A DNA stretch of 64,000 nt from Acidobacteriota bacterium (lineage in GTDB: Bacteria; Acidobacteriota; UBA6911; RPQK01; JAJDTT01), in contig OZ242374.1 in the NCBI GenBank assembly GCA_965209055.1, forward strand, positions 4,480,001-4,544,000, given 5' to 3'. The position numbers and the translations under genes were made by a program. The notes below the pieces were generated by a model. It searched no databases and was not told where the DNA came from. It saw nothing but the letters and a program-made list of their open reading frames with translations. Shown piece by piece: positions 5,166 to 19,776 of the stretch; position 1 is the stretch's first letter; every line of letters starts with the position of its first letter.

Positions 5166-7354
5166 GTCGACCTCGCCCCGGCGCGGCGCCGATTCACAAA
5201 GACCAGGACCAGGCAACCCAGCAGGCACAGCCCCGACAAGGAAGCTCCCAGAATGATCGACGCCGGACGATAGACGAACTGCACCTCGTGCTCGCCGGCC
5301 GGGAGGAATACGGCTCGCAACGCCCCGTGTGCGCGGTAGAGCCTGGCCGGTTCACCATCGACGGTCGCCTTCCATCCGGGGAAGTGGGCATCTCCGAAAA
5401 CCAGGTACGCGGCGCACGGCATTCGCGCTCGCGTCCTCACTTCATGGAGGGTCGTCTCCAGGAACCTGACCACGCCCTCCTGTCCACATCCTTCGGGCCG
5501 GGGCAAGAGATCTTCCCCGTCAGATGCGATGGTTTCCGTGTCGTGAACCGTCCATGCCCGAGGGGACGCGTCCGGGTTGAGAAAGACCTTCCACCCCGTC
5601 GAACTTCTGAAGACTTCGACTTGTGATTCGCGGACCCGATCCCTGGAAACCGTATACACCGTGTTGAGCATGAGCCGCCGCCGTTCCCAGTCACCCCGGA
5701 AGAAGTCCAGAACGTCGCGGCTGACCGAGGCCAGGTAGCCGTCCACCATCTCCAGCCCCTCCCAACCCCCGATGTTCGGTTTTCTTCCCTCGGTCTCGAT
5801 GTGGAACCGGAAGGGCTTGGGCCTCGACTTGAGATACTCGGCGACCTCGCCGAACTCCGCCAACCTGTCGAGATGCCCGGGGCGGGCGGGATCGTTTCGA
5901 TGGGACAGTGACGTCGAATGCGCCACTCCCATCTCGAACAACATCAGAGCCACGATTGCGAAACGCGCGGCCGGCGCCGAGATCGAACCGCGCCGGACGG
6001 CATGCAGCAGCGCCGCCAAGCCAAACGCCGCCATGGCGGCAATCACCACCTGGTCGCCCGAGTGTCGAGTCATCTTGCCGTCGAGATACCGGTAGAGGGT
6101 CAAAAGCCATGCCGACGCGCCAAACCCCACCAGAGCCCGCTGGATGGCCGGCAACCAGCGCCCGCCCGGATGAGACTTCCGGTCCCGAAGCAGTCGATCC
6201 ACGCCGAACGCCGCCAGGACGAAGACCGCAAACTGGAAAACGAACACGGCATGCGCCGGCGCCCGGGCCTTGTCAAACAGCGGAACGGCAGCGTAGACCC
6301 AACCGTGCAGGATCGAGAACGGCCCCAGCGAATAGGCCAGCGCGGCGAGCGCAATGCAGGAATAGACGCGGACCCAGCGCTCCCTCCAGCAGGCGCCGAC
6401 GGCGTAGATGGCCAACGAGAGGCACACGAGCCCGACGAAGGTGCTGACCTGGAAATGGGCGTGCGGAACCAGCATGCCCAGCAGTGTGACCGCGTACAGG
6501 CGCAGGCCGGACTGTGCGTAGTACGGCACATCCTGGCCCATGGTCAAGGGGCGCTCGGCGCCGACCCAGCGGTAGGATTCGGCGCCGTATTCGATGGCCG
6601 GCAACAGTTGCAGCGCCGCCGCCGCGAACGTCGTCCCCGCAATCACCACGTACAGTCCCGTGAAACCTGCCGCCTCGCGGTACGACCGGCGCAGACGCTC
6701 GAACAGGAAATAGAAGAACACCCCGGTAAGAGCCAGCAGGGCATACATGGGGTTCTGGTGATGGCCGCTCAGCAAAGCCATGCCGATGGCCCCGCCACAA
6801 AACACGGCGTTGGTCCACCGGCCCGAAGGATCCCGGGCCCGCTCCATCCGATGAAACAGCAGGAAGATCAATGGGATCCAGATGGCGCCGTTGACCTTCT
6901 GCGGCCAATTGGTAGCGGCGAGATACCCGCCGCACCCGAACGCCAACGCAGCCAGAACCGCCGCGTACCGGCTTCTTCCCAACTCGCGCACCAGGCCGTA
7001 CATGAAGAGCGCCGCCAACACGTGCATCAGCACGAAGTGCCAGTGGACCCAACGGAGCTGGATCCGGCCGTCCTTGAGCGGCGCCAGGAACAACGGCCAG
7101 TTGAGCGGAAATGCGCCGCCGGGTTGCATCTGTCCCAACAACGACTGGCCCGCCCAGTGGTAGGGGTCCCACATGGGGAAGATCCCCTCGTGCCATGCCT
7201 TGGCCTGCACCTGGTACCAGGGCAGGACCTGGTACGCCAGGTCCGGATTGTCGGCGAAGGTGAATTGCTGACTGAGGCTGAGCCTCCAGAAGAAAAGAAC
7301 GACCAGAATGAGGATGACGGCCAGTGGGAATCGATCGAATAAGTCCGACTTCAT
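5162..7354 (-). CDS. YfhO-family multi-TM membrane glycosyltransferase (GT-C-like)
   Basis: PMWDPYHWAGQSLLG, many TM helices, C-terminal FPGWKATVDG...LRAVFLPAGEHEV. Confidence 0.85.
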   Translation of the reverse strand: MKSDLFDRFPLAVILILVVLFFWRLSLSQQFTFADNPDLAYQVLPWYQVQAKAWHEGIFPMWDPYHWAGQSLLGQMQPGGAFPLNWPLFLAPLKDGRIQLRWVHWHFVLMHVLAALFMYGLVRELGRSRYAAVLAALAFGCGGYLAATNWPQKVNGAIWIPLIFLLFHRMERARDPSGRWTNAVFCGGAIGMALLSGHHQNPMYALLALTGVFFYFLFERLRRSYREAAGFTGLYVVIAGTTFAAAALQLLPAIEYGAESYRWVGAERPLTMGQDVPYYAQSGLRLYAVTLLGMLVPHAHFQVSTFVGLVCLSLAIYAVGACWRERWVRVYSCIALAALAYSLGPFSILHGWVYAAVPLFDKARAPAHAVFVFQFAVFVLAAFGVDRLLRDRKSHPGGRWLPAIQRALVGFGASAWLLTLYRYLDGKMTRHSGDQVVIAAMAAFGLAALLHAVRRGSISAPAARFAIVALMLFEMGVAHSTSLSHRNDPARPGHLDRLAEFGEVAEYLKSRPKPFRFHIETEGRKPNIGGWEGLEMVDGYLASVSRDVLDFFRGDWERRRLMLNTVYTVSRDRVRESQVEVFRSSTGWKVFLNPDASPRAWTVHDTETIASDGEDLLPRPEGCGQEGVVRFLETTLHEVRTRARMPCAAYLVFGDAHFPGWKATVDGEPARLYRAHGALRAVFLPAGEHEVQFVYRPASIILGASLSGLCLLGCLVLVFVNRRRAGARST

Positions 7355-7598
7355 GGCTCAAATGCCGGCGTCCCGGCCGGCGGCAGCACTCATGTTCCCA
7401 GCAAATCAAGCCGGCTTCGAAGACGCAAGCCATGACGAAGTTCGGGATTCTCCCGATCGTCTACTCGCACCGGCCTTCTTCGCCCATTCATGCGGATCAA
7501 ATGAGGATCGAGACTTCTTGCTCCTGGAACGACTTGCTATCTTGAATACGGTTCCGATCGCTGGTGTTCATGGGCGACCAAATCGAGATTGCCGAGCC

Positions 7599-8300
7599 AT
7601 GCCGGGCAAGCTGAGCGTCATCATTCCCGTCTACAACGAACGCGGCACGCTGGAGGAAGTGTTGAGCCGGGTCGCCCAGGCGCCCATGGAAAAGGAGGTG
7701 ATCGTCGTGGACGACGGCTCCGACGACGGGACCCGGGAGATCCTCGAACGCCTCTCGATGAATGCCGGCCGATCGGATCGACTCCGGATCGTCTTCCACA
7801 ATGGGAATCAGGGCAAGGGTGCGGCGGTGCGCACCGGAATCGCTCAAGCCACGGGCGATTGGATCCTGATTCAGGACGCCGACCTGGAATACGATCCTCG
7901 GGATTATCCGATGCTTTTGGCTCCGCTCCAGGACGGCCGCGCCGACGTGGTCTACGGCAGCCGCTTCCTGGATGGCGCCCATCGGACCCGGTACTTTCAG
8001 CACTACCTGGCCAACCGCTTCCTGACCTTCGTCTCGAACCTGATGACCAACCAGAAGCTGTCGGACATGGAAACCGGCTACAAGGTCTTTCGCCGGGAGG
8101 TCCTGGACGGCATCCGCCTCCGGTCGAACCGCTTCGAGATCGAACCCGAGATCACGGTCAAGTTGACTCGCCAGGGATATCGAATCCACGAGATTCCCAT
8201 CTCCTACAACAGCCGCTCCTACCGGGAAGGCAAGAAAATCACCTGGGTGGACGGGCTCAAGGCATTGTGGGCCCTGTTTCGCTACCGGTTCTTCTCGTAG
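7599..8300 (+). CDS. GT2 glycosyltransferase (polyprenol-phosphate glycosyltransferase-like)
   Basis: Start re-called at ATG 7599; LSVIIPVYNE, VDDGSDDGT, NQGKGAA, QDADLEYDP, GSRF, DMETGYK. Confidence 0.92.
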   Translation: MPGKLSVIIPVYNERGTLEEVLSRVAQAPMEKEVIVVDDGSDDGTREILERLSMNAGRSDRLRIVFHNGNQGKGAAVRTGIAQATGDWILIQDADLEYDPRDYPMLLAPLQDGRADVVYGSRFLDGAHRTRYFQHYLANRFLTFVSNLMTNQKLSDMETGYKVFRREVLDGIRLRSNRFEIEPEITVKLTRQGYRIHEIPISYNSRSYREGKKITWVDGLKALWALFRYRFFS

Positions 8301-8301
8301 G

Positions 8302-8414
8302 GGCAGGAGGGGGGACTGTTGGTCCCTTAATCCCCCCTCGGCGACTGGGAAGTGTAGAGGGGGACTCCGTCTCCCTAACCCCCCTTCGGCGGTAGGAAAA
8401 CCGCCGCTCCTTAC
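8302..8414. repeat. REP/REPIN-like extragenic palindromic repeat, intact copy between convergent genes
   Basis: AGGAGGGGGGACTGTTGGTCCC ... GGGGGACTCCGTCTCCC ... TCGGCGGTAGGAAAACCGCCGCTCC; the same modules recur at 12797, 15124/17899-18021 and 58333-58450. Confidence 0.8.
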
Positions 8415-11998: not shown

Positions 11999-12799
11999 AT
12001 GAACATGCACCGAGCGGCGGATACTCCGAGCGCCTTTCGGGAACGGTGGAACGGCTGGCTCAATTTCTCCTTGGCCGCATCCCTGGTTCCCTTCTCCTAT
12101 CGGTTCCCTCCCCTGGACCGCATGGTCGATATGGTCCGCCGGGATGAGGGAGTCCGGGTCCTGAGCGGAAGACAGGGAGACCGCATGGACGAGACCGACA
12201 TCTCGCGCCAATTCCGGTCCCTTCCCATCCAGGAGGCCCTGGACTCACCATTCCAGATGTCCCATTTCGACCTTGCCCGGTTCCAGCGACCGGGCGGGAT
12301 CCTGGAGGGACTGGAGGAGCAGGTGATGGTTCCCTGGAAGCGTTTCCTCCGTTCGGCCGGCTTCACTTGGCGGAGATGCTTCCCCATCCTGTTCTTCTCG
12401 GGTCCGGGCTGCGCCACCAACTACCACATGGACCTCTCCCACGTCCTGGCCTGGCAGATCTACGGGACCAAGCATTTCCATGGCCTGACGGATCCCGGCC
12501 GCTGGGCGCCCCTGGACAAGGTGGTGCAGCAAGCCCGCCGGGAGGAGTTGTCCAAGCCTCGCAGACTAAAGCCCGAGGATGTCCTCACTTTCGTCATGAA
12601 GCCGGGCGACTGCCTCTGGAACCAGCTCCTGACGCCCCACTGGGTGGAAGCAAGCTCGGAGACGGCCGTGAGCCTGAACCTCTCTCACGGAGGACTGCGC
12701 TGCCAGGGCCGGCTCGCGCCCCAGGAGCAAGCCTTGGAAGAGTGGTGGAAGACCCACCCTGACGAAGTCTGGCTGGGACCGCCGCATCTGCTGGAATAG
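11999..12799 (+). CDS. Cupin/JmjC-like Fe(II) oxygenase
   Basis: TNYHMD, WQIYGTK, MKPGDCLW...PHWVE, VSLN (HxD...H triad). Confidence 0.7.
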   Translation: MNMHRAADTPSAFRERWNGWLNFSLAASLVPFSYRFPPLDRMVDMVRRDEGVRVLSGRQGDRMDETDISRQFRSLPIQEALDSPFQMSHFDLARFQRPGGILEGLEEQVMVPWKRFLRSAGFTWRRCFPILFFSGPGCATNYHMDLSHVLAWQIYGTKHFHGLTDPGRWAPLDKVVQQARREELSKPRRLKPEDVLTFVMKPGDCLWNQLLTPHWVEASSETAVSLNLSHGGLRCQGRLAPQEQALEEWWKTHPDEVWLGPPHLLE

Positions 12800-12823
12800 G
12801 AGGTGGGACTGTTAGTCCCCCAC
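12797..12823. repeat. REP-like palindrome, short copy (candidate empty attB)
   Basis: TAGGAGGTGGGACTGTTAGTCCCCCAC; core 12805-12819 is identical to the att cores at 15132 and 17899. Confidence 0.75.
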
Positions 12824-13821: not shown

Positions 13822-15120
13822 ATGATGAGACGTCCCTTCCAGTTGCTCGCCCCGACCGCGCTCGCCATCGTCATCGGCGCCTGCCAGCCGGCTCCCGAGC
13901 CAAAGACGCCATCCGACCCGCCCAAGATCCGTCTGGAGGTGGGTGATCCCGTGACGGTGCCTACCGGCCAATACCCGGGCCTGTCCTACGGGCCCCGGAT
14001 GGTGACCCTGCCGGACGGAAGAGTCCTGGTCGGCCGGGGAGAGATCGCCTTGACCACGACCGACTCGGGGGCGACATGGGACGTGGGCCCGGCCATCGCC
14101 AGGCCGCACCTGCTTCCTCTCCGGGACGGAAGCTATTTCTTCCTGAAGGGCCGCGGTTCCGCCACCGGCGAGCCGGGGCTGTTCTCCCTGGAAATGGCGC
14201 ACGTCCAGTCCCTGGATGAAAACGCCACCGAAGAACGGATCTCCTGGTCCCCCGCCACGGCGCGCGTCGACCGTTGGACGCCGCTGACGGCCGACAACGA
14301 GAGCGAAGTGGACTACCTGGGCGTCGGGGGCCCGTTCCTGGAGTTGGATGACGGGACCCTGCTGGCCGCCTGCTACGGGAATTTCAAGGGAGACACGGTG
14401 CCCATGGAGGGATTTCCCGCCACCAGCGGCCAGAAGTGGTTCAAGTACCGAACCTACCTGTTGTCCTCCAGCGACGGCGGCGCCACCTGGGAGTACCTCT
14501 CCACCATCGCCTACGACGGAGTCACGGGCCAGGAGAGCTTCTGCGAACCGGCCATGGTGGACCTTAGCGGCGGGGAGTTGTTGGCGGTGATGCGGACCGG
14601 CCGTTTCGCGCCCATGTTCCAGGTCCGTTCCCTGGACGGCGGCAATACCTGGCAGGAACCGGAGTCCATGCACATCCTGGGTCTGGCGCCCCAGATGGTC
14701 CTGCTGGAGAACGGCGCCCTCGTGTGCAGCTTCGGCTGGAGACGTCTGAAGGTGGGCTACGGCCATGGACTCAACGACGAGGGCGGACCGTACCCGGTCG
14801 CATTGCGGGATTACCAGGAACGCTATCTTCAAGACGTGGGCATCGAGAACCCGTCCGAAGCGGCCGGCGATTACGTGATGGTCAGCCTGGACAAGGGGAA
14901 GACCTGGTCCGAGCCCCGCAAGTTCGCCGAGCCCCTCACCTCCGGGTACACTCTCTTGGCCGCCACCGGACCCGACACCGTCCTGGTCATGTCAGCCAGA
15001 CTCACCATTCCGGGCCAGTCCCAGGAGCGTCACCTGGAGATCTGGGAGCGGGAATGGCCCCAGTGGTCCGACAAGTCCGTCGTGGTAAGAGTCGCCCGAA
15101 AGATCCGCGTCGTGCTGTAG
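13822..15120 (+). CDS. Sialidase/BNR-repeat lipoprotein
   Basis: RBS AAGGAG then ATG 13822; lipobox IVIGAC; Asp-boxes TTDSGATW, SSDGGATW, SLDGGNTW, SLDKGKTW. Confidence 0.8.
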   Translation: MMRRPFQLLAPTALAIVIGACQPAPEPKTPSDPPKIRLEVGDPVTVPTGQYPGLSYGPRMVTLPDGRVLVGRGEIALTTTDSGATWDVGPAIARPHLLPLRDGSYFFLKGRGSATGEPGLFSLEMAHVQSLDENATEERISWSPATARVDRWTPLTADNESEVDYLGVGGPFLELDDGTLLAACYGNFKGDTVPMEGFPATSGQKWFKYRTYLLSSSDGGATWEYLSTIAYDGVTGQESFCEPAMVDLSGGELLAVMRTGRFAPMFQVRSLDGGNTWQEPESMHILGLAPQMVLLENGALVCSFGWRRLKVGYGHGLNDEGGPYPVALRDYQERYLQDVGIENPSEAAGDYVMVSLDKGKTWSEPRKFAEPLTSGYTLLAATGPDTVLVMSARLTIPGQSQERHLEIWEREWPQWSDKSVVVRVARKIRVVL

Positions 15121-15131
15121 GAATAGGAGGG

Positions 15132-15146
15132 GGGACTGTTAGTCCC
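15132..15146 (+). repeat. attL core
   Basis: GGGACTGTTAGTCCC, identical to 17899-17913. Confidence 0.85.
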
Positions 15147-15183
15147 AACTGTCCCACAGTCAAAGACTACCGAACGTTAACGT

Positions 15184-15196
15184 TTTCAATATGTTA
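15184..15196 (+). promoter_or_regulatory. IHF-like site in left att arm
   Basis: TTTCAATATGTTA vs consensus WATCAANNNNTTR (1 mismatch). Confidence 0.55.
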
Positions 15197-15254
15197 CCGG
15201 GTTCTTCGCCGGACCGGTAAGGTGTTTGACTCCCCATGTTTGACGTGCTGAACA

Positions 15255-15269
15255 GGCAACAAACAGGCA
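15255..15269 (+). repeat. Putative integrase arm-type site (left)
   Basis: GGCAACAAACAGGCA, identical to 17791-17805; internally tandem (ACAGGCA). Confidence 0.7.
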
Positions 15270-15393
15270 GCCGAATCGGTTCCTGACAGCCGCCCCGCCC
15301 TTTTTTCCCCTTCCGGTGCCTGGCTCAGAGCCCTTATCAGTTAGGCTTTGCTGACCGTTTGGCTCCACCGCAGGACTCAGCCTGAGGCCGAAG

Positions 15394-15621
15394 GTGTCCG
15401 GCTTCGAACGGCTCGGCATTCCCAAGCATCAGCATCCCCGGCAAGTGTACTACGGCACGGTCGGGAAGACCCGGCACTACTTGGCGTTCAAACTGCCGAT
15501 TGCCGTCGAGGACGACAGGGCCGTCCTCGTCGGTGTCGATCCGGAGCCTGTGGCCACCAAGGGTCTGCGCTCCTGGATGGCGGCGCACCGGCGGTGGAGG
15601 AGCGCTCCGTCTCAGTTGTGA
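15394..15621 (+). CDS. Small hypothetical protein or gene fragment in the element
   Basis: 75-aa ORF with protein-like composition (RQVYYGTVGKTRHYLAFKLP); start uncertain. Confidence 0.3.
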   Translation: MSGFERLGIPKHQHPRQVYYGTVGKTRHYLAFKLPIAVEDDRAVLVGVDPEPVATKGLRSWMAAHRRWRSAPSQL

Positions 15622-15831
15622 TCGAGATGACCACTCTCGGCCGCCGCAAAGATTTTTGGAGACTCGTTTCGGGTGTGCGTCAAGGGGTCTCGCGCCCGAT
15701 CCGGGAGTGTGAATGGGACATGGGGGGTGGATTCACAAAAAGCGGTCCCGGTGATTCACACCTCCGCTTTCCCCGATCGTTTTTCCTTTCAGTCAGTTAC
15801 GGCCCCCTACCCCCGGACGCCGGCGCCCGCA

Positions 15832-15959
15832 CGGGGAGATCGGAGGTGGACGGGAGCGACCCCCCCTTTTTGCTGCCCGGTGCGGGCGCGGGGGTGTTGC
15901 GCGATTCACATCTGCGCAACACCCCCTGGGGGGGTCGCTCCCGTCTCAATTATCCTTGC
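15832..15959 (+). other. Conserved branched stem-loop element, copy 1 (candidate oriT, ssDNA origin or ncRNA)
   Basis: Outer stem GACGGGAGCGACCCCCCC/GGGGGGGTCGCTCCCGTC enclosing two hairpins, followed by TATCCTTGC; covarying homolog at 28762-28886. Confidence 0.7.
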
Positions 15960-15999
15960 AGGAAGGCCCGGAGGAAGACCGTGGACCGGGTGGACCTGT

Positions 16000-16386
16000 C
16001 CCCCCAAACCCCCCAGTGGCGCCAGAACCCCTGGCGGCTCACATTGCCGCCAGTGAACCTGACGCTCGTCGCGGGTGGGCCAGCCCCCCCGAACCCCCCG
16101 GATGCGAAGAGACACATACCAACTGAAAATCCCTTCCAGAGAGCGCCGAGGCCCTGGGTTCGAGCCTCCCCACCGTGTGGAAAATCAGAGATTTCCCACA
16201 GGGTGCGTCGTTTTGCCGACCCTACAATCAGCGCCCCCCACCAAAGAAAGTCTGCTCCCGGCTGGAAGCCGTCCGAGACCGCGCGAGGGACCCATTCCTA
16301 TGGGACGCGACAAACAGGAGCGCGTGAAAAAGGGTCAGGCAGGGTGAGCCTGACTCTTTGAGGGCGCCACTGGGGGGTCTGGGGGG
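16000..16386. repeat. 24-bp inverted repeat pair in the non-coding core of the element
   Basis: CCCCCCAAACCCCCCAGTGGCGCC (16000-16023) vs GGCGCCACTGGGGGGTCTGGGGGG (16363-16386), 1 mismatch. Confidence 0.7.
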
Positions 16387-16744
16387 AAAGGTTCCCCCCG
16401 GTCCGTCATCCGTTCCGGCTGGCCGGCCTCGCGGACCAGGACGTCACCGGCCCGCCGTTGGAGGACCTCGACCACGGTCGCGGTCCAGGTCTCTTGGCCC
16501 CGCGTCGTGATCGGGATGGAGCCGCCGAGAAGGCGCTCGGGGAGCTTGCCGGTGGCCGCAAGGCAGGACGAACTCCAGGAGCCCTCTTCGAGCTTGTAGG
16601 GACTCCACGCCGACGATACGGAGCTTTCGCAGGTGTTTTGCCATCGACACCGGAGAGGTTGGACAGGGGCCGTGCTGGCGGCCATGGACAGGTGGTACGA
16701 TTCGCCCCATGGCGAAGAACCCGGATCCGGAAAGGAGGAGATGC

Positions 16745-17956
16745 ATGGGCATCTACAAGGTGAAGGATCGCCGGGGGAGACGACGTTTCGTCGTCAGCAA
16801 GTACTGGCCGAACGGATCCGGTCGGCTCCGAATGTACGCCCCCAACTACCGGAGCGCACAGGCGCTTCAAACACGAATCGAGTCCAGCATCCTGGACGGC
16901 ACATGGAAGCAGCTCAAGGAGGAGCTCGCCGGCGGGAAACGCACCATCTGGACGGTCCGGAGCTTCTACGAGCGTTTCTTCGAGGAGTATTGCAAACCTC
17001 GTCTGCGCTCTTTGCGCCGGTACACGCTCTCGTTCAAGAGCCTCAACGCCATGCTGGGGAACATTCCCTTGAAGGAGTTCCAGCGCAAGGACCTCCACCG
17101 CTACGTCGCGAAACGGAAGGGGCAGGTCCAGCCGGCCACGGTGAACCGCGACATTGCGGCCCTCAGCAAGCTGTTTTCCTACGCGCTGGAGTGCGGGGAA
17201 GTGGACACGCACCCGCTGGTGAGATTCCCCAAACTCAAAGAACCCAAGAAGGTCTTCCGGCCCTTGACGGTTCAACAGTTCCGCGACCTGGTCGAGGCGG
17301 TGGACAACCCTTACCTGCAAGCCATGATCGCGGTGATCGGCGAGACGGGGATACGGAAAGGCGAAGCGTTGTCGCTCACCTGGAAACGGTTGGACCTGTC
17401 CCGGAGGCTGCTATGGGTGGAGTTCACCAAGGACGACGAGCCGAGGGAGATTCCGCTCTCGAAGTACGCTGCCGGATATCTGGCCGGGCTGGTTCGCTAC
17501 CTGAACATCCCTTACGTCTTCGTCAACACCCGGACGGGGACGAAATGGGTGAATCCCGACAAGCCTTTGCGCCGGGCCGCCGAGCGGGTGGGGTTGAAGG
17601 TCGGATTTCACGACCTGAGACGCTTCCGGTGCAGCCATTGGCTGATGCAGGGGGTGGACGTGAGGACGGTGCAGAAGCTGATGGGGCACTCATCGATCAG
17701 CACGACCATGCGCTACGCGGGTTACGTCAGTTCTCATGCACTCGCCAGCATACGGGAGGCACAGGCTACCGAAGACTCACAAATGCGACCGGCAACAAAC
17801 AGGCAACGGGCAGGAAATAGGGGAATGATTAGAGAAGAGCAGTGGCGTAAACCCTTGAAAACACAAGCACACGCCCCAAGCTCAGCAGGACAGAGCACGG
17901 GACTGTTAGTCCCCCATTCTTCAGTGTCGCTACTGGATACGATGGGTGGTAGGTGA
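16745..17956 (+). CDS. Tyrosine recombinase / phage-type integrase
   Basis: RBS AAGGAGGAG then ATG 16745; SAM-like PATVNRDIAAL; catalytic TGIRKGE (R), FTKDD (K), FHDLRR (HxxR), LMGHSS (H), TMRYA (Y) all intact. Confidence 0.95.
   Translation: MGIYKVKDRRGRRRFVVSKYWPNGSGRLRMYAPNYRSAQALQTRIESSILDGTWKQLKEELAGGKRTIWTVRSFYERFFEEYCKPRLRSLRRYTLSFKSLNAMLGNIPLKEFQRKDLHRYVAKRKGQVQPATVNRDIAALSKLFSYALECGEVDTHPLVRFPKLKEPKKVFRPLTVQQFRDLVEAVDNPYLQAMIAVIGETGIRKGEALSLTWKRLDLSRRLLWVEFTKDDEPREIPLSKYAAGYLAGLVRYLNIPYVFVNTRTGTKWVNPDKPLRRAAERVGLKVGFHDLRRFRCSHWLMQGVDVRTVQKLMGHSSISTTMRYAGYVSSHALASIREAQATEDSQMRPATNRQRAGNRGMIREEQWRKPLKTQAHAPSSAGQSTGLLVPHSSVSLLDTMGGR
17791..17805 (+). repeat. Putative integrase arm-type site (right)
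   Basis: GGCAACAAACAGGCA, identical to 15255-15269. Confidence 0.7.
17848..17860 (-). promoter_or_regulatory. IHF-like site in right att arm
   Basis: Minus strand TTTCAAGGGTTTA vs WATCAANNNNTTR. Confidence 0.5.
17871..17914 (+). pseudogene. Degenerate tRNA 5' half containing the attR core
   Basis: ACGCCCC-AA-GCTC-AGCAGGACA-GAGC-A-CGGGA-CTGTTAG-TCCCC has canonical acceptor/D-arm/anticodon-arm spacing; no T-arm or 3' acceptor strand follows. Confidence 0.75.
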
Positions 17957-18021
17957 AAGTGCATAGGGGGACTCCGTCCCCCTGCCCCCCCTGGTCGGCG
18001 ACAGGAAAGTCGCCGCTCCCT
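17914..18021. repeat. Right part of the interrupted REP/REPIN-like repeat
   Basis: GGGGGACTCCGTCCCCC...TCGGCGACAGGAAAGTCGCCGCTCC matches the right part of the 8302-8414 copy. Confidence 0.8.
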
Positions 18022-18027
18022 CGGCGG

Positions 18028-19776
18028 CTAGAAAGCCGCTGCTCCATCCGTTTCCGGTTCGTAGACGGGGTCGCCCCGATGAAGGCGGATGGCCACGCGG
18101 AGAGTCTGGTTCATGGCCCTTTGCGTCGGAGCGTGAGCCGCCAGATAACGGGCCGCTCCGACCATCACCAGATTCCTTTCCTCCCGATCCTCGGTCTCAC
18201 CGTATTGCCGAACGGCCGCCTCCAGCATCTGGAAGGTGTGGAAGTTGGCGTCTTCCCGCATCAGGCTCTCGGTCAAGGCCGAGATGAGCGGGCCGCCGGA
18301 CCCGCCGCCTTCCAGGTAGGTCCAGACCATCTGTCCGGCCCGGTCCGTCTCCTGCTGGTGGTTCATGAGTGTCAGGAGGCGGGACCGGATCGAATTCCCC
18401 CCGGATTCCGCGCCGGCCGCCGCCCGGCTTGAAGGCAGTCTTGCGGGCGGGATGTTGAAGAAACGGTCCAGGTAGACCCGCATGGCTCCGTGAAACACGC
18501 CCCTTGTCAGGTCCGGCGACTGGTTGCGTTTAAGCAGTTGATGCAGGGCATTGGAATAGGTGAAGGTGTGAAGGACGGCGATCCAGTCGGCCAACTCGTT
18601 CTGGACGTGAAAGTGGACGATGCGCAGCGCCGCGGCATAGGCCACCGCCTGGGCCAACTCCACCGGTTGGGCGCCCCCACGCAACGCCGCCAGCAGTGCC
18701 TCGATGGGGGTGTGAGGATCGTCGCTGAAAAGGGTTTCGGTGAAGTCCTGCGGCTTGGTCCAGATCTTCCCCTGCCCCGATTCCAGAGCCTCGGGAATCT
18801 GAGCCACGGCCTGGCGCAGCACCGGCACCAGATCGATGGGGTGCCGCCACGGGTTCCTCTCCTCGCTTCGAACCGCCAGGCACAGAGGCCGGATCAGGGC
18901 GGGCAGCAACCGGCCGGCATGTTCCCAGCCGATGCGGTCCAGCAGTTCGAAAGCCTTGTTCACGAAGTCGATGACGTGACCCCCATCCAGGTATACGTGG
19001 TCCGTGGCCGCGGCCCCGACCAGGTCGGTCAGTTGCGCGCTCGTCATCCCCTTGTGGACGGCGGTCAGAAGGCAGCGCTCGGCGCCCTCGGTGCTGCGGA
19101 CCTCCACGAAGTAGCGGAACCAGCGTTTGAGATGCTCTGCCGGGATTTCCTGATTTCGAAGGGGCGGGATCTCGAATTTGGGGGTGCGGCCGGCGCAGTC
19201 CCGGGCGATGTGGACCAGGCCATGGTACAGGGGCGGGATCCGCTCCGTCCCCTCCAGGAGGTCGCAGACATTGGCCATGGCGCTGAGAATGGTGAGGCCG
19301 GAACTCCAGTCCCGGCGATGCCGGACGCCGTAGAGCGCGCCCTGCCGCGCGACCTCATGGTGGGAGACGCCGCTGTGGTGCAGTCCCACCACCGACTTGC
19401 CCATGATCAAGCTGAGGTTCTGCTCCATTCCCTCCTGGAGCCGCCGGCTCCAGCGCTGGACCGGATCGACCGGCGGCGGCGTGACGTCCAGGTAGACCTC
19501 TCCGCCCCGGACCTCCACACGGAAGGAATCCACGTCGTCCGCGAACAGGTTGAAGGTGCATCCGCTCACCAGGTCGAAGCGCGCATGGTGCCAGTAGCAG
19601 GTGAGGATGCCGTCCTCCACGGTGCCGCGGTGCAGTGGAAAACCCATGTGCGGACAGCGGTTGTCGACGGCGCGCAGCTCTCCGTCGTGGTCGAAGATCA
19701 CGATGGGGACCGGACCCTTGGACACCACCAGGGGACTCCTGGACCGAACTTCCTCCAGCGATCCGACATGAATCAT
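18028..19776 (-). CDS. Rieske [2Fe-2S] domain protein with helical C-terminal region
   Basis: NRCPHMGFPL and TCYWHHARFD; C-terminal His motifs GGHVIDF, LHTFTY, FHTFQ. Confidence 0.85.
   Translation of the reverse strand: MIHVGSLEEVRSRSPLVVSKGPVPIVIFDHDGELRAVDNRCPHMGFPLHRGTVEDGILTCYWHHARFDLVSGCTFNLFADDVDSFRVEVRGGEVYLDVTPPPVDPVQRWSRRLQEGMEQNLSLIMGKSVVGLHHSGVSHHEVARQGALYGVRHRRDWSSGLTILSAMANVCDLLEGTERIPPLYHGLVHIARDCAGRTPKFEIPPLRNQEIPAEHLKRWFRYFVEVRSTEGAERCLLTAVHKGMTSAQLTDLVGAAATDHVYLDGGHVIDFVNKAFELLDRIGWEHAGRLLPALIRPLCLAVRSEERNPWRHPIDLVPVLRQAVAQIPEALESGQGKIWTKPQDFTETLFSDDPHTPIEALLAALRGGAQPVELAQAVAYAAALRIVHFHVQNELADWIAVLHTFTYSNALHQLLKRNQSPDLTRGVFHGAMRVYLDRFFNIPPARLPSSRAAAGAESGGNSIRSRLLTLMNHQQETDRAGQMVWTYLEGGGSGGPLISALTESLMREDANFHTFQMLEAAVRQYGETEDREERNLVMVGAARYLAAHAPTQRAMNQTLRVAIRLHRGDPVYEPETDGAAAF

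Follow-up and report, generated by a model that had tools for sequence, protein, structure and literature searches.

Element E16 and its ends

The stretch analysed here (the window) comprises 64,000 nt of an Acidobacteriota genome (assembly GCA_965209055.1, contig OZ242374.1, positions 4,480,001 to 4,544,000). Features are on the + strand unless stated otherwise. The window contains an integrative element of 2,752 bp, E16 (15147..17898), a minimal member of a family with 26 copies in this 6.08-Mb genome (one contig, G000). E16 is flanked by copies of a repetitive extragenic palindromic (REP) sequence, and its right end carries a segment laid out like the 5ʹ half of a tRNA, which had been pointed out in an earlier note made from the sequence of the window.

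The stop codon (15118-15120) of a gene with BNR repeats, according to Pfam, is directly followed by the host REP 5ʹ flank AGGAGGG (15125..15131), which also precedes unoccupied cores. Then comes the left core, attL (15132..15146), a copy of the 15-bp REP core GGGACTGTTAGTCCC composed of a 5ʹ stem, the 7-nt loop CTGTTAG and a 3ʹ stem. The left end of the element (the Pʹ arm, 15147..15272), kept in all 26 elements, starts with AACTGTCCCACAGTC and contains a TTTTCAA box and the arm-type repeat ACAGGCAACAAACAGGCA at 15252-15269. On the other side, the right core, attR (17899..17913), forms together with 17897-17898 an anticodon-like arm, CGGGA-CTGTTAG-TCCC, and is followed by the host REP 3ʹ flank CCATTCTTC (17914..17922), which is also found after unoccupied cores. 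The same 15 bp stand as a direct repeat at both ends of E16 (15132-15146 and 17899-17913) and are shared with the unoccupied target.

The gene for a tyrosine integrase (16745..17832) has its likely ATG start at 16745 behind an AGGAGG site and the stop codon of the family, TAG, at 17830-17832. Its product matched PF00589 in Pfam (E=2.2e-26, 93.1 bits) together with N-terminal SAM-like domains, and the translation shows HDLRR...MGHSSISTTMRYAGY motifs, in keeping with a predicted tyrosine recombinase catalytic domain. The window copy lacks 1 nt of a G run near 17820, so that the family stop is lost and the open reading frame (ORF) continues through the tRNA-like segment to 17956; the 15 other integrase copies that were aligned all stop before this segment, the gene ending about 40 nt upstream of it. 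Two direct repeats predicted to be arm-type sites, ACCGGCAACAAACAGGCA and ACAGGCAACGGGCAGGAA, lie in the P arm (17788..17816), overlap the 3ʹ end of the integrase gene and are kept across the att classes described below, and the predicted arm-type direct repeats ACAGGCAACAAACAGGCA lie about 100 nt from the core on either side, as expected for a heterobivalent integrase. A TTGAAAA box (17855..17861) occurs at a fixed distance upstream of the tRNA-like segment in all classes and in tRNA-integrated relatives, and a similar box stands upstream of the native tRNA-Arg(TCT) gene. None of the four other ORFs inside E16 matched a Pfam family.

E16 was 100% identical over 2,752 bp to a second element, E24 (genome 6054142-6056893), and the flanks of the two were unrelated, which indicates recent movement rather than segmental duplication.

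A tRNA-Arg(TCT)-like segment beside the right core

The + strand at 17871-17913 reads ACGCCCCAAGCTCAGCAGGACAGAGCACGGGACTGTTAGTCCC and is laid out as a 7-nt acceptor strand, 2 nt, a 4-bp D stem (GCTC/GAGC) with a 9-nt loop, 1 nt and a final arm of 5-7-4 geometry, CGGGA-CTGTTAG-TCCC. The tRNA spacing noted earlier, with a 7-nt loop reading GTT and no 3ʹ half, was borne out by the sequence, ARAGORN and Rfam: nothing resembling a T arm or a 3ʹ tRNA half was found downstream of 17913, ARAGORN reported no tRNA at this place (its sole call in the window being 8126-8214), and Rfam gave no tRNA match at E≤10 in 17000-18800. The segment lacks the complete cloverleaf that tRNA finders report and is not a functional tRNA gene.

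When the sequence was cut at 17914 and a 3ʹ-truncated match was allowed, as the earlier note had proposed, the RF00005 model (Infernal) placed its positions 1-42 on exactly 17871-17914. The score of 12 bits (E=3.5) was not significant against a gathering score of 29; this check failed, and it favors the explanation that the tRNA resemblance arose by chance within a G+C-rich repeat. Significance was therefore taken from direct alignment and from the intact tRNA in relatives. Positions 1-31 of the host tRNA-Arg(TCT), whose gene is intact at genome 307704-307778 on the minus strand, could be aligned with the segment without gaps and with 6 mismatches in 31, the matches being 5 of 7 in the acceptor strand (positions 1-7), 17 of 19 at positions 8-26 and 3 of 5 at positions 27-31. 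When every 31-mer on both strands of the genome was compared with tRNA-Arg(TCT) 1-31, 27 were found within 8 mismatches, namely 5 tRNA-Arg genes and 22 element arms, with no unrelated sequence. In blastn against the genome, the right arm aligned with the tRNA-Arg(TCT) gene and with 13 nt of the sequence preceding it (E=2.5e-4). The resemblance of the D arm to tRNA-Arg, suggested earlier, was thus confirmed and traced to the host tRNA-Arg(TCT). As no unrelated 31-mer came near the tRNA, and as the homologous position is an intact tRNA in four relatives (G003, L017, G010 and G029), a chance resemblance is extremely improbable.

The loop CTGTTAG differs by a single base from that of the host tRNA-Asn(GTT), CTGTTAA, which would fit a tRNA-Asn integrase whose REP insertions are off-target events at look-alikes of the Asn anticodon arm. 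However, the segment proved Arg-like and not Asn-like, the stem of tRNA-Asn is CCGG/CCGG and not GGGA, and no integrase copy was found near tRNA-Asn (2.124 Mb) among the genome-wide tblastn matches. The loops of the sister element classes are unrelated to Asn, and the relatives sit in tRNA-Arg. Since the Asn core differs and no integrase lies nearby, the use of REPs does not look like off-target activity of an Asn integrase, and we regard this origin as highly improbable. On the evidence of these alignments, we take 17871-17898 to be a decayed 5ʹ part of tRNA-Arg(TCT), not of tRNA-Asn. This relic, the element-borne part of attR, covers tRNA positions 1-28, from the acceptor 5ʹ strand through the D arm to the start of the anticodon stem, and the GTT in the loop is the REP's own, not that of a tRNA-Asn.

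Twenty-six elements in four att classes

A tblastn search of the genome detected 26 near full-length integrase copies at 87-100% identity, one degenerate copy and five fragments. The 120 nt to the right of 15146 and the 110 nt to the left of 17899 were kept at 26 loci with unrelated flanks, and these ends paired into 26 elements of 2,669 to 25,049 bp, one of which (E26) is cut by the contig end. Together they amount to about 261 kb, or 4.3% of the chromosome. There were 27 integrase matches in G000, 10 in G004 and 0-2 in each of the other six genomes of the genus; to judge from these counts, the amplification was recent and local.

The elements fall into four att classes that use different REP hairpins. 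Class A (9 elements, including E16) has the attP ...GAGCAC GGGA CTGTTAG TCCC AACTGTCCC and occupies the site GGGGA CTGTTAG TCCCC. Class B (7 elements) has the overlap CTAACAG and occupies the REP of class A in the opposite orientation, with inverted host flanks. Class C (6 elements) has the attP CGGA TTTCCAA TCCC and occupies GCGA TTTCCAA TCGC, except for E12, which lies in GGGGT TTTCCAA CCCCC. Class D (4 elements) has the attP CGGA TTTCCTA TCCC and occupies GGGGT TTTCCTA CCCCC.

In 4 of the 26 elements (E08, E14, E17 and E12), just 7 bp (TTTCCTA or TTTCCAA) are common to attL and attR, with different bases on either side, which places both strand exchanges inside those 7 bp. In the gapless alignment of the arms to the tRNA, these 7 bp are the anticodon loop, and comparison of the junctions hence points to a crossover within the 7 bp at the anticodon-loop position. 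In class A, where the stems of the REP happen to be identical to those of attP, attL and attR share a block of 15 bp, so that the crossover of E16 is bounded less tightly.

The loops found beside the relic can be ordered in small steps: CTTCTAA (the tRNA), TTTCTAA (E05), TTTCCAA, TTTCCTA, TTTCTAG, CTTCCAG, CTTTCCT, CTTTTAG, CTTTCAG, CTGTTAG and CTAACAG. The loop of E05 is one base from the CTTCTAA of tRNA-Arg(TCT), and the loops TTTCTAG, CTTCCAG, CTTTCCT, CTTTTAG and CTTTCAG come from relatives, where they stand next to the same relic. The junctions thereby provide a natural series of attP and attB sites differing mainly in the 7-bp overlap and in orientation, material for work on the specificity and re-programming of heterobivalent integrases.

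Occupied and empty REP targets

The distribution of the core agrees with the earlier identification of the anticodon arm as a REP palindrome: the window holds 4 copies of the 15-nt core at ≤2 mismatches, against 0.19 expected, and the genome holds 37 exact copies. At ≤1 mismatch, there were 57 matches in the genome, about 24 of them unoccupied. With the rows sorted by eye into occupied and unoccupied, the 37 exact cores comprised 10 left and 8 right junctions of class A, 7 left junctions of class B and 12 unoccupied cores, and the 20 cores with one mismatch comprised 7 right junctions of class B, 1 degenerate left junction and 12 unoccupied cores. Host DNA to the left of the elements ends in AGGAGGG, that to their right begins with CC(A/C)(T/G)TCTTC, and unoccupied cores carry both flanks.

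In the window, an unoccupied core lies at 12805..12819, 5 nt after the stop of the ORF 11999-12799, and an unoccupied variant with one mismatch, GGGACTGTTGGTCCC, lies at 8312..8326, 11 nt after the stop of a glycosyltransferase ORF (7308-8300); all 3 host REP copies of the window stand 5-11 nt after stop codons. The commonest hairpins with a 5-bp stem strand, 7-nt loop and 5-bp stem strand (5-7-5) in the genome were GGCGA-TTTCCAA-TCGCC (79 copies) and GGCGG-TTTCCAA-CCGCC (52 copies), both with the class C loop. In geometry they match an anticodon arm, and they form genuine repeat families.

An empty site was found for the sister element E11 (class A, 2.7 kb) in the same-genus genome G008, where the left flank, one core and the right flank are contiguous (...ccacctgggaggGGGACTGTTAGTCCCccattcccctttgcg...). 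In G001, an unoccupied REP variant follows the orthologue of the gene that precedes E16. The right flank of E24 had no match in five relatives, and the clean empty site is that of E11 only. Parts of the window are contained in 24 public sequencing runs, of which 4 were used. Their contigs included joints from 15146 to 17925-17996, the shorter sides of which were 20-26 nt with extra letters between the sides, indicating other REP loci and not empty sites. Summed contig depth, which is not a copy number, was far higher over the backbone than over the flanks.

The relic is intergenic and has no 3ʹ half, as would also be expected if an insertion or deletion had disrupted a host tRNA gene where it stood, leaving a chromosomal pseudogene and not part of a mobile element. 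But at 25 other loci, whose flanks are unrelated, the integrase gene is followed by the same stump, the genome has an intact tRNA-Arg(TCT) gene elsewhere, and G008 has an empty site for a sister element. We consider an origin in place barely conceivable.

Two ORFs of the genome had weak Y1_Tnp matches (30.8 and 23.6 bits) and RAYT-like HxH and YxxxNP motifs. One lies at genome 1142600-1143700 (minus strand), beside the right end of E05, the other at 3750500-3751800 (minus strand), and their motifs read HVHVL / YIRENP and HYHL / YVELN. A simple pattern search revealed no REP hairpins beside either ORF, and no link to the REPs described here was established. The ARAGORN call in the window, a tRNA-Ser(cga) at 8126-8214 on the minus strand, falls inside the glycosyltransferase ORF 7308-8300, is unlike the other tRNA-Ser genes of the genome and is probably a false positive. 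Several further ARAGORN calls in the genome (e.g., 3354464 and 4203100) look like REP arrays.

Relatives linked to intact tRNA-Arg genes

In G003, a complete chromosome of the same genus, the integrase and its arm abut an intact tRNA-Arg(TCT) at attR, as called by ARAGORN. About 47 kb away on the same strand, attL holds the displaced 5ʹ part of the native tRNA (positions 1 to about 42), with the orthologue of the gene preceding tRNA-Arg in G000 on one side and an element left end on the other. The left end of E16 is 83% identical to that of this tRNA-integrated element. The arrangement in G003 is that of a classic integrated island, with the difference that the tRNA part borne by the element is the 5ʹ one. 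A second case is a public contig of 1,873 nt (L017), in which an integrase C-terminus at 86% identity and the arm are followed by an intact tRNA-Arg(TCT), 1 nt from that of the host. The tRNA segment in the arm, decayed in E16, is a perfect part of the tRNA in both G003 and L017.

More distantly, the integrases of G010 and G029 (71% identical) lie directly 5ʹ of an intact tRNA-Arg(TCG), in G029 also at tRNA-Arg(TCT). The tRNA target is rebuilt on integration in G003, L017, G010 and G029; this is not so in E16, whose site is a REP behind a protein gene and where no 3ʹ half follows. The attP of E16 nevertheless holds a segment of the tRNA that those relatives target, as the alignment of the relic with tRNA-Arg(TCT) shows. 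The lineage restoring a tRNA 5ʹ half that the earlier note had postulated is therefore real, as seen at attR and attL of G003 and in L017, G010 and G029, the last with two sites.

In G029 (L085 and L086), identical integrase copies lie 5ʹ of two isoacceptor genes, tRNA-Arg(TCG) and tRNA-Arg(TCT). On the 3ʹ side of the TCG gene, both G029 and G010 (L046) have a second integrase, 47-55% identical and in the usual orientation, so that both sides of the gene are occupied. Integrases of distant relatives, likewise 47-55% identical, lie on the 3ʹ side of tRNA-Arg genes in the usual orientation.

Target sites on the integrase tree

As the earlier note had advised, target sites were mapped on an integrase phylogeny. 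The tree had 48 rows: 26 from G000, 13 REP-type copies from relatives, 5 from the 5ʹ side and 3 from the 3ʹ side of tRNA-Arg genes, and 1 with unplaced context; partial or unexamined copies (L012, L014, L016 and L018-L029) were left out. Integrases from the 3ʹ side of tRNA-Arg formed the outgroup (support 100/100), and the copies from the 5ʹ side grouped with those of REP type (100/100). G010 and G029 were basal in that group (100/99), and G003 and L017 fell together with all 39 REP-type rows (100/98). The tRNA-linked copies thus stand at the base, and the direction from tRNA to REP is read from these deeper branches, not from the position of G003 and L017. Classes A and B were intermixed in the tree, indicating that the same integrases serve both orientations.

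A probable change of target from tRNA gene to REP hairpin

We consider it very probable that the end of E16 is a fossil 5ʹ part of tRNA-Arg(TCT), inherited from a lineage of tRNA integrases in reversed orientation that was retargeted to REP hairpins. The retargeting that the earlier note had proposed agrees with the 26 REP-bounded elements, the empty site in G008 and the basal tRNA-linked integrases. The ancestors would have had the anticodon loop of tRNA-Arg as their integration site and would have used the rare reversed orientation, with the element supplying the 5ʹ part of the tRNA, and integration would have rebuilt the tRNA gene at the integrase-proximal junction. In this genus, the target would then have changed to REP hairpins of a 5-bp stem, 7-nt loop and 5-bp stem, which have the geometry of an anticodon arm. 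Strand exchange, presumably catalyzed by the integrase, would take place inside the 7 bp at the anticodon-loop position, and the match between the attP loop and the REP loop would select the REP family. The loop would also set the orientation of insertion, the stems being palindromic. After integration, the junction would run in the order relic, element stem strand, loop and host stem strand, which is the 5ʹ half with the anticodon arm of a REP, and the relic would no longer restore anything.

Several observations, besides the covariance-model score given above, weigh against this explanation. Monophyly of the REP-type integrases was weak (36/74, in 38% of bootstrap trees, with the bootstrap not settled at its end); the tRNA(TCT)-linked copies of G003 and L017 could be the sister of the REP group or lie within it, and may represent a return from REP to tRNA. 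At the site of E16 itself, orthologues of the left flank were found in eight same-genus genomes, and at the five loci compared the downstream side was not syntenic. No excised circle or attP junction was seen over 14600-18500 in the public contigs of the 4 runs (3 samples). Lastly, the region upstream of the native tRNA is matched more closely by class A relics, together with the 13 nt in front of them, than by the arms of classes B-D, which means that simple linear descent does not explain the arms; arms and integrase genes have probably been shuffled among elements.

Upstream of the native tRNA-Arg(TCT) gene (genome 307779-307830), the sequence ACGGACTGTTAAAGT is similar to the class A core (CGGGACTGTTAGTCC), and a TTCGAAAAA box there resembles the TTGAAAA box of the elements. 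The closeness of class A arms to native sequence hints at exchange between arms and the chromosomal tRNA locus.

Fate of the relic

Over 32 distinct relics of REP type, identity to the tRNA was 0.49 in the acceptor strand, 0.83 at positions 8-26 and 0.81 at positions 27-31. From the TTGAAAA box to the core, there was no insertion or deletion in 25 arms of G000 (E26 was left out of this alignment, being cut by the contig end), in the junctions of 3 tRNA-linked elements or in the native tRNA-Arg gene. The exact spacing, the uneven identity and the likeness of the upstream box to the region upstream of native tRNA-Arg would suit a relic that is still functional, either through an outward transcript of tRNA 5ʹ half and REP hairpin (a small RNA or decoy), started by a tRNA promoter on the element, or as a selected, obligatory part of attP that the integrase binds. 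On the other hand, the conservation may simply reflect the youth of the family, and the decay of the D stem is mostly one-sided: pairing is kept in 110 of 128 cells, and a double change occurs in only 2 of 32 rows. These counts rule out reading the relic as an RNA structure and argue against selection for an RNA fold. Taken as a whole, a functional relic of either kind seems unlikely. We take the conservation to stem either from a constraint on the DNA near the core, through spacing or binding of the integrase, or simply from the youth of the family, and for the retention of the fossil 5ʹ part we favor a spacing or binding role in the P arm. For annotation, a half-tRNA match beside an integrase need not mark a tRNA target.

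A broader possibility, which we put forward tentatively and would not yet prefer, is that the integrase family is naturally re-targetable, recognizing hairpins loosely and leaving the choice of site and orientation to the 7-nt loop of attP. The loop would have walked stepwise from the anticodon loop of tRNA-Arg to at least 10 REP loops, including the reverse complement of one of them, and each step would have opened dozens of landing sites and allowed amplification of defence-gene cassettes in the manner of insertion sequences (IS). The tRNA D-arm segment would have been kept as part of the P-arm and core architecture of the integrase, and reversal of orientation would be recurrent, from the 3ʹ side to the 5ʹ side at the tRNA and from class A to class B at the REP.

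Backbone module, cargo and intron

The left end, a non-coding module of about 380 nt and the integrase with its arm are common to all 26 elements. In E16, the module occupies 15587..15969 (no strand assigned), and its nested hairpins have 18-bp arms (15849-15866 / 15928-15945) and 13-bp arms (15890-15902 / 15914-15926). The part 15685-15945 (the module measuring about 260-380 nt) is nearly invariant in the 26 elements, with three GATTCACA-like boxes. RNAalifold predicted 79 pairs there, 3 of them with double (compensatory) change. The module had no match in Rfam, and ARAGORN miscalls its copies elsewhere in the genome as tRNA-Val. The module may serve in transfer or replication as an origin, or act as an RNA; a DNA cruciform was also considered.

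A perfect 14-nt inverted repeat connects the left end (15197-15210, CCGGGTTCTTCGCC) with the first codons of the long integrase ORF (16711-16724), and the tRNA-integrated element of G003 has the left-end copy as well. In the variable part of E16, inverted repeats of 36 nt (15988-16023 / 16363-16398, 89% complementary) enclose 339 nt and may represent a small nested insertion.

The space for cargo, of up to 22 kb, has the module on one side and on the other a sharp border, 17 nt short of the first ATG (16709) of the integrase ORF, whose likely start is at 16745. For 81 of 179 ORFs (≥130 aa), taken from 19 stretches covering 18 elements, a comparison with Pfam was made. The matches included type I restriction-modification (HsdR, HsdM and HsdS), type III restriction-modification and GmrSD, and further AbiTii, Abi_alpha, HNH, FRG, LRR proteins and IS transposases. 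Restriction or abortive-infection genes are carried by many of the elements. On these domain matches, the family appears to act as a carrier of defence cassettes, and it would show a route by which restriction and abortive-infection genes can reach many loci of one chromosome.

In E02, a group II intron of 1,912 nt (L067:1146-3057) was recognized by RF02005 (160.7 bits), RF00029 (41 bits) and a reverse-transcriptase ORF with YADD; identical copies lie at genome 3708108-3710019 and 5306071-5307982. Three of the 26 elements carry it, always at one position a few codons downstream of the likely integrase start; the copies are 100% identical, and there is no other in the genome. The intron appears to home into this integrase gene.

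Comparison with known systems

Zhao and Williams (2002) reportedly described integrative elements that recombine with the 5ʹ-distal part of a tRNA gene, in "reversed target orientation". Such recombination is known but "considerably less frequent", according to PMC6563490. The relatives in G003, L017, G010 and G029 resemble these elements in that attP carries the tRNA 5ʹ part and the gene is rebuilt on the integrase-proximal side, whereas E16 lies in a REP, has no tRNA target and belongs to a set of 26 copies. Integrases at tRNA genes with crossover in the anticodon loop are said to have been described by Williams (2002). As in those, a symmetric stem provides the half-sites of the core and a 7-nt loop the overlap (E08, E14, E17 and E12); unlike them, where the element usually carries the 3ʹ part of the tRNA and has one target per genome, the elements described here carry the 5ʹ part and target a repeat family. 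The related genomes, with ancestral, intermediate and derived states, document a path by which a tRNA integrase could leave the limit of one site per genome.

Insertion sequences that target REPs include IS621 and other IS110 members, ISPpu9/10, ISPa11 and ISRm22 (PMC1525189, PMC10849738). These likewise insert in many copies and sequence-specifically into REP hairpins; however, they are mobilized by DEDD or DDE transposases, in the IS110 family with a bridge RNA, whereas the elements described here have a tyrosine recombinase and cargo. That recombinase is the sole gene common to all 26 elements, and the DDE genes that were found belong to separate IS copies within the cargo. Tyrosine integrases would join the enzymes known to exploit REPs. 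The Tycheposons of Prochlorococcus, according to a preprint (10.1101/2020.12.28.424599), occupy 7 tRNA or tmRNA genes with 1-2 elements per genome. They are similar as small, tRNA-directed cargo elements with a tyrosine recombinase, including some at tRNA-Arg(TCT), and carry defence or niche cargo; they differ from the present elements, which lie in REPs and number 26 in one genome.

The family also shares its association with REPs, and a genome containing two RAYT-like ORFs, with RAYT or REPtron systems. RAYTs are HUH single-strand transposases thought to spread REPs, whereas the enzyme that uses REPs as its target here is unrelated. No description of tyrosine-integrase elements with REPs as targets was found in a limited search of open-access full text. 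Enzyme, att logic and a layout with a tRNA 5ʹ part are of kinds already known. What appears to be new in comparison is that the target changed from a tRNA gene to a REP hairpin with retention of the tRNA fossil, that one REP is used in both orientations and that the copy number is like that of insertion sequences.

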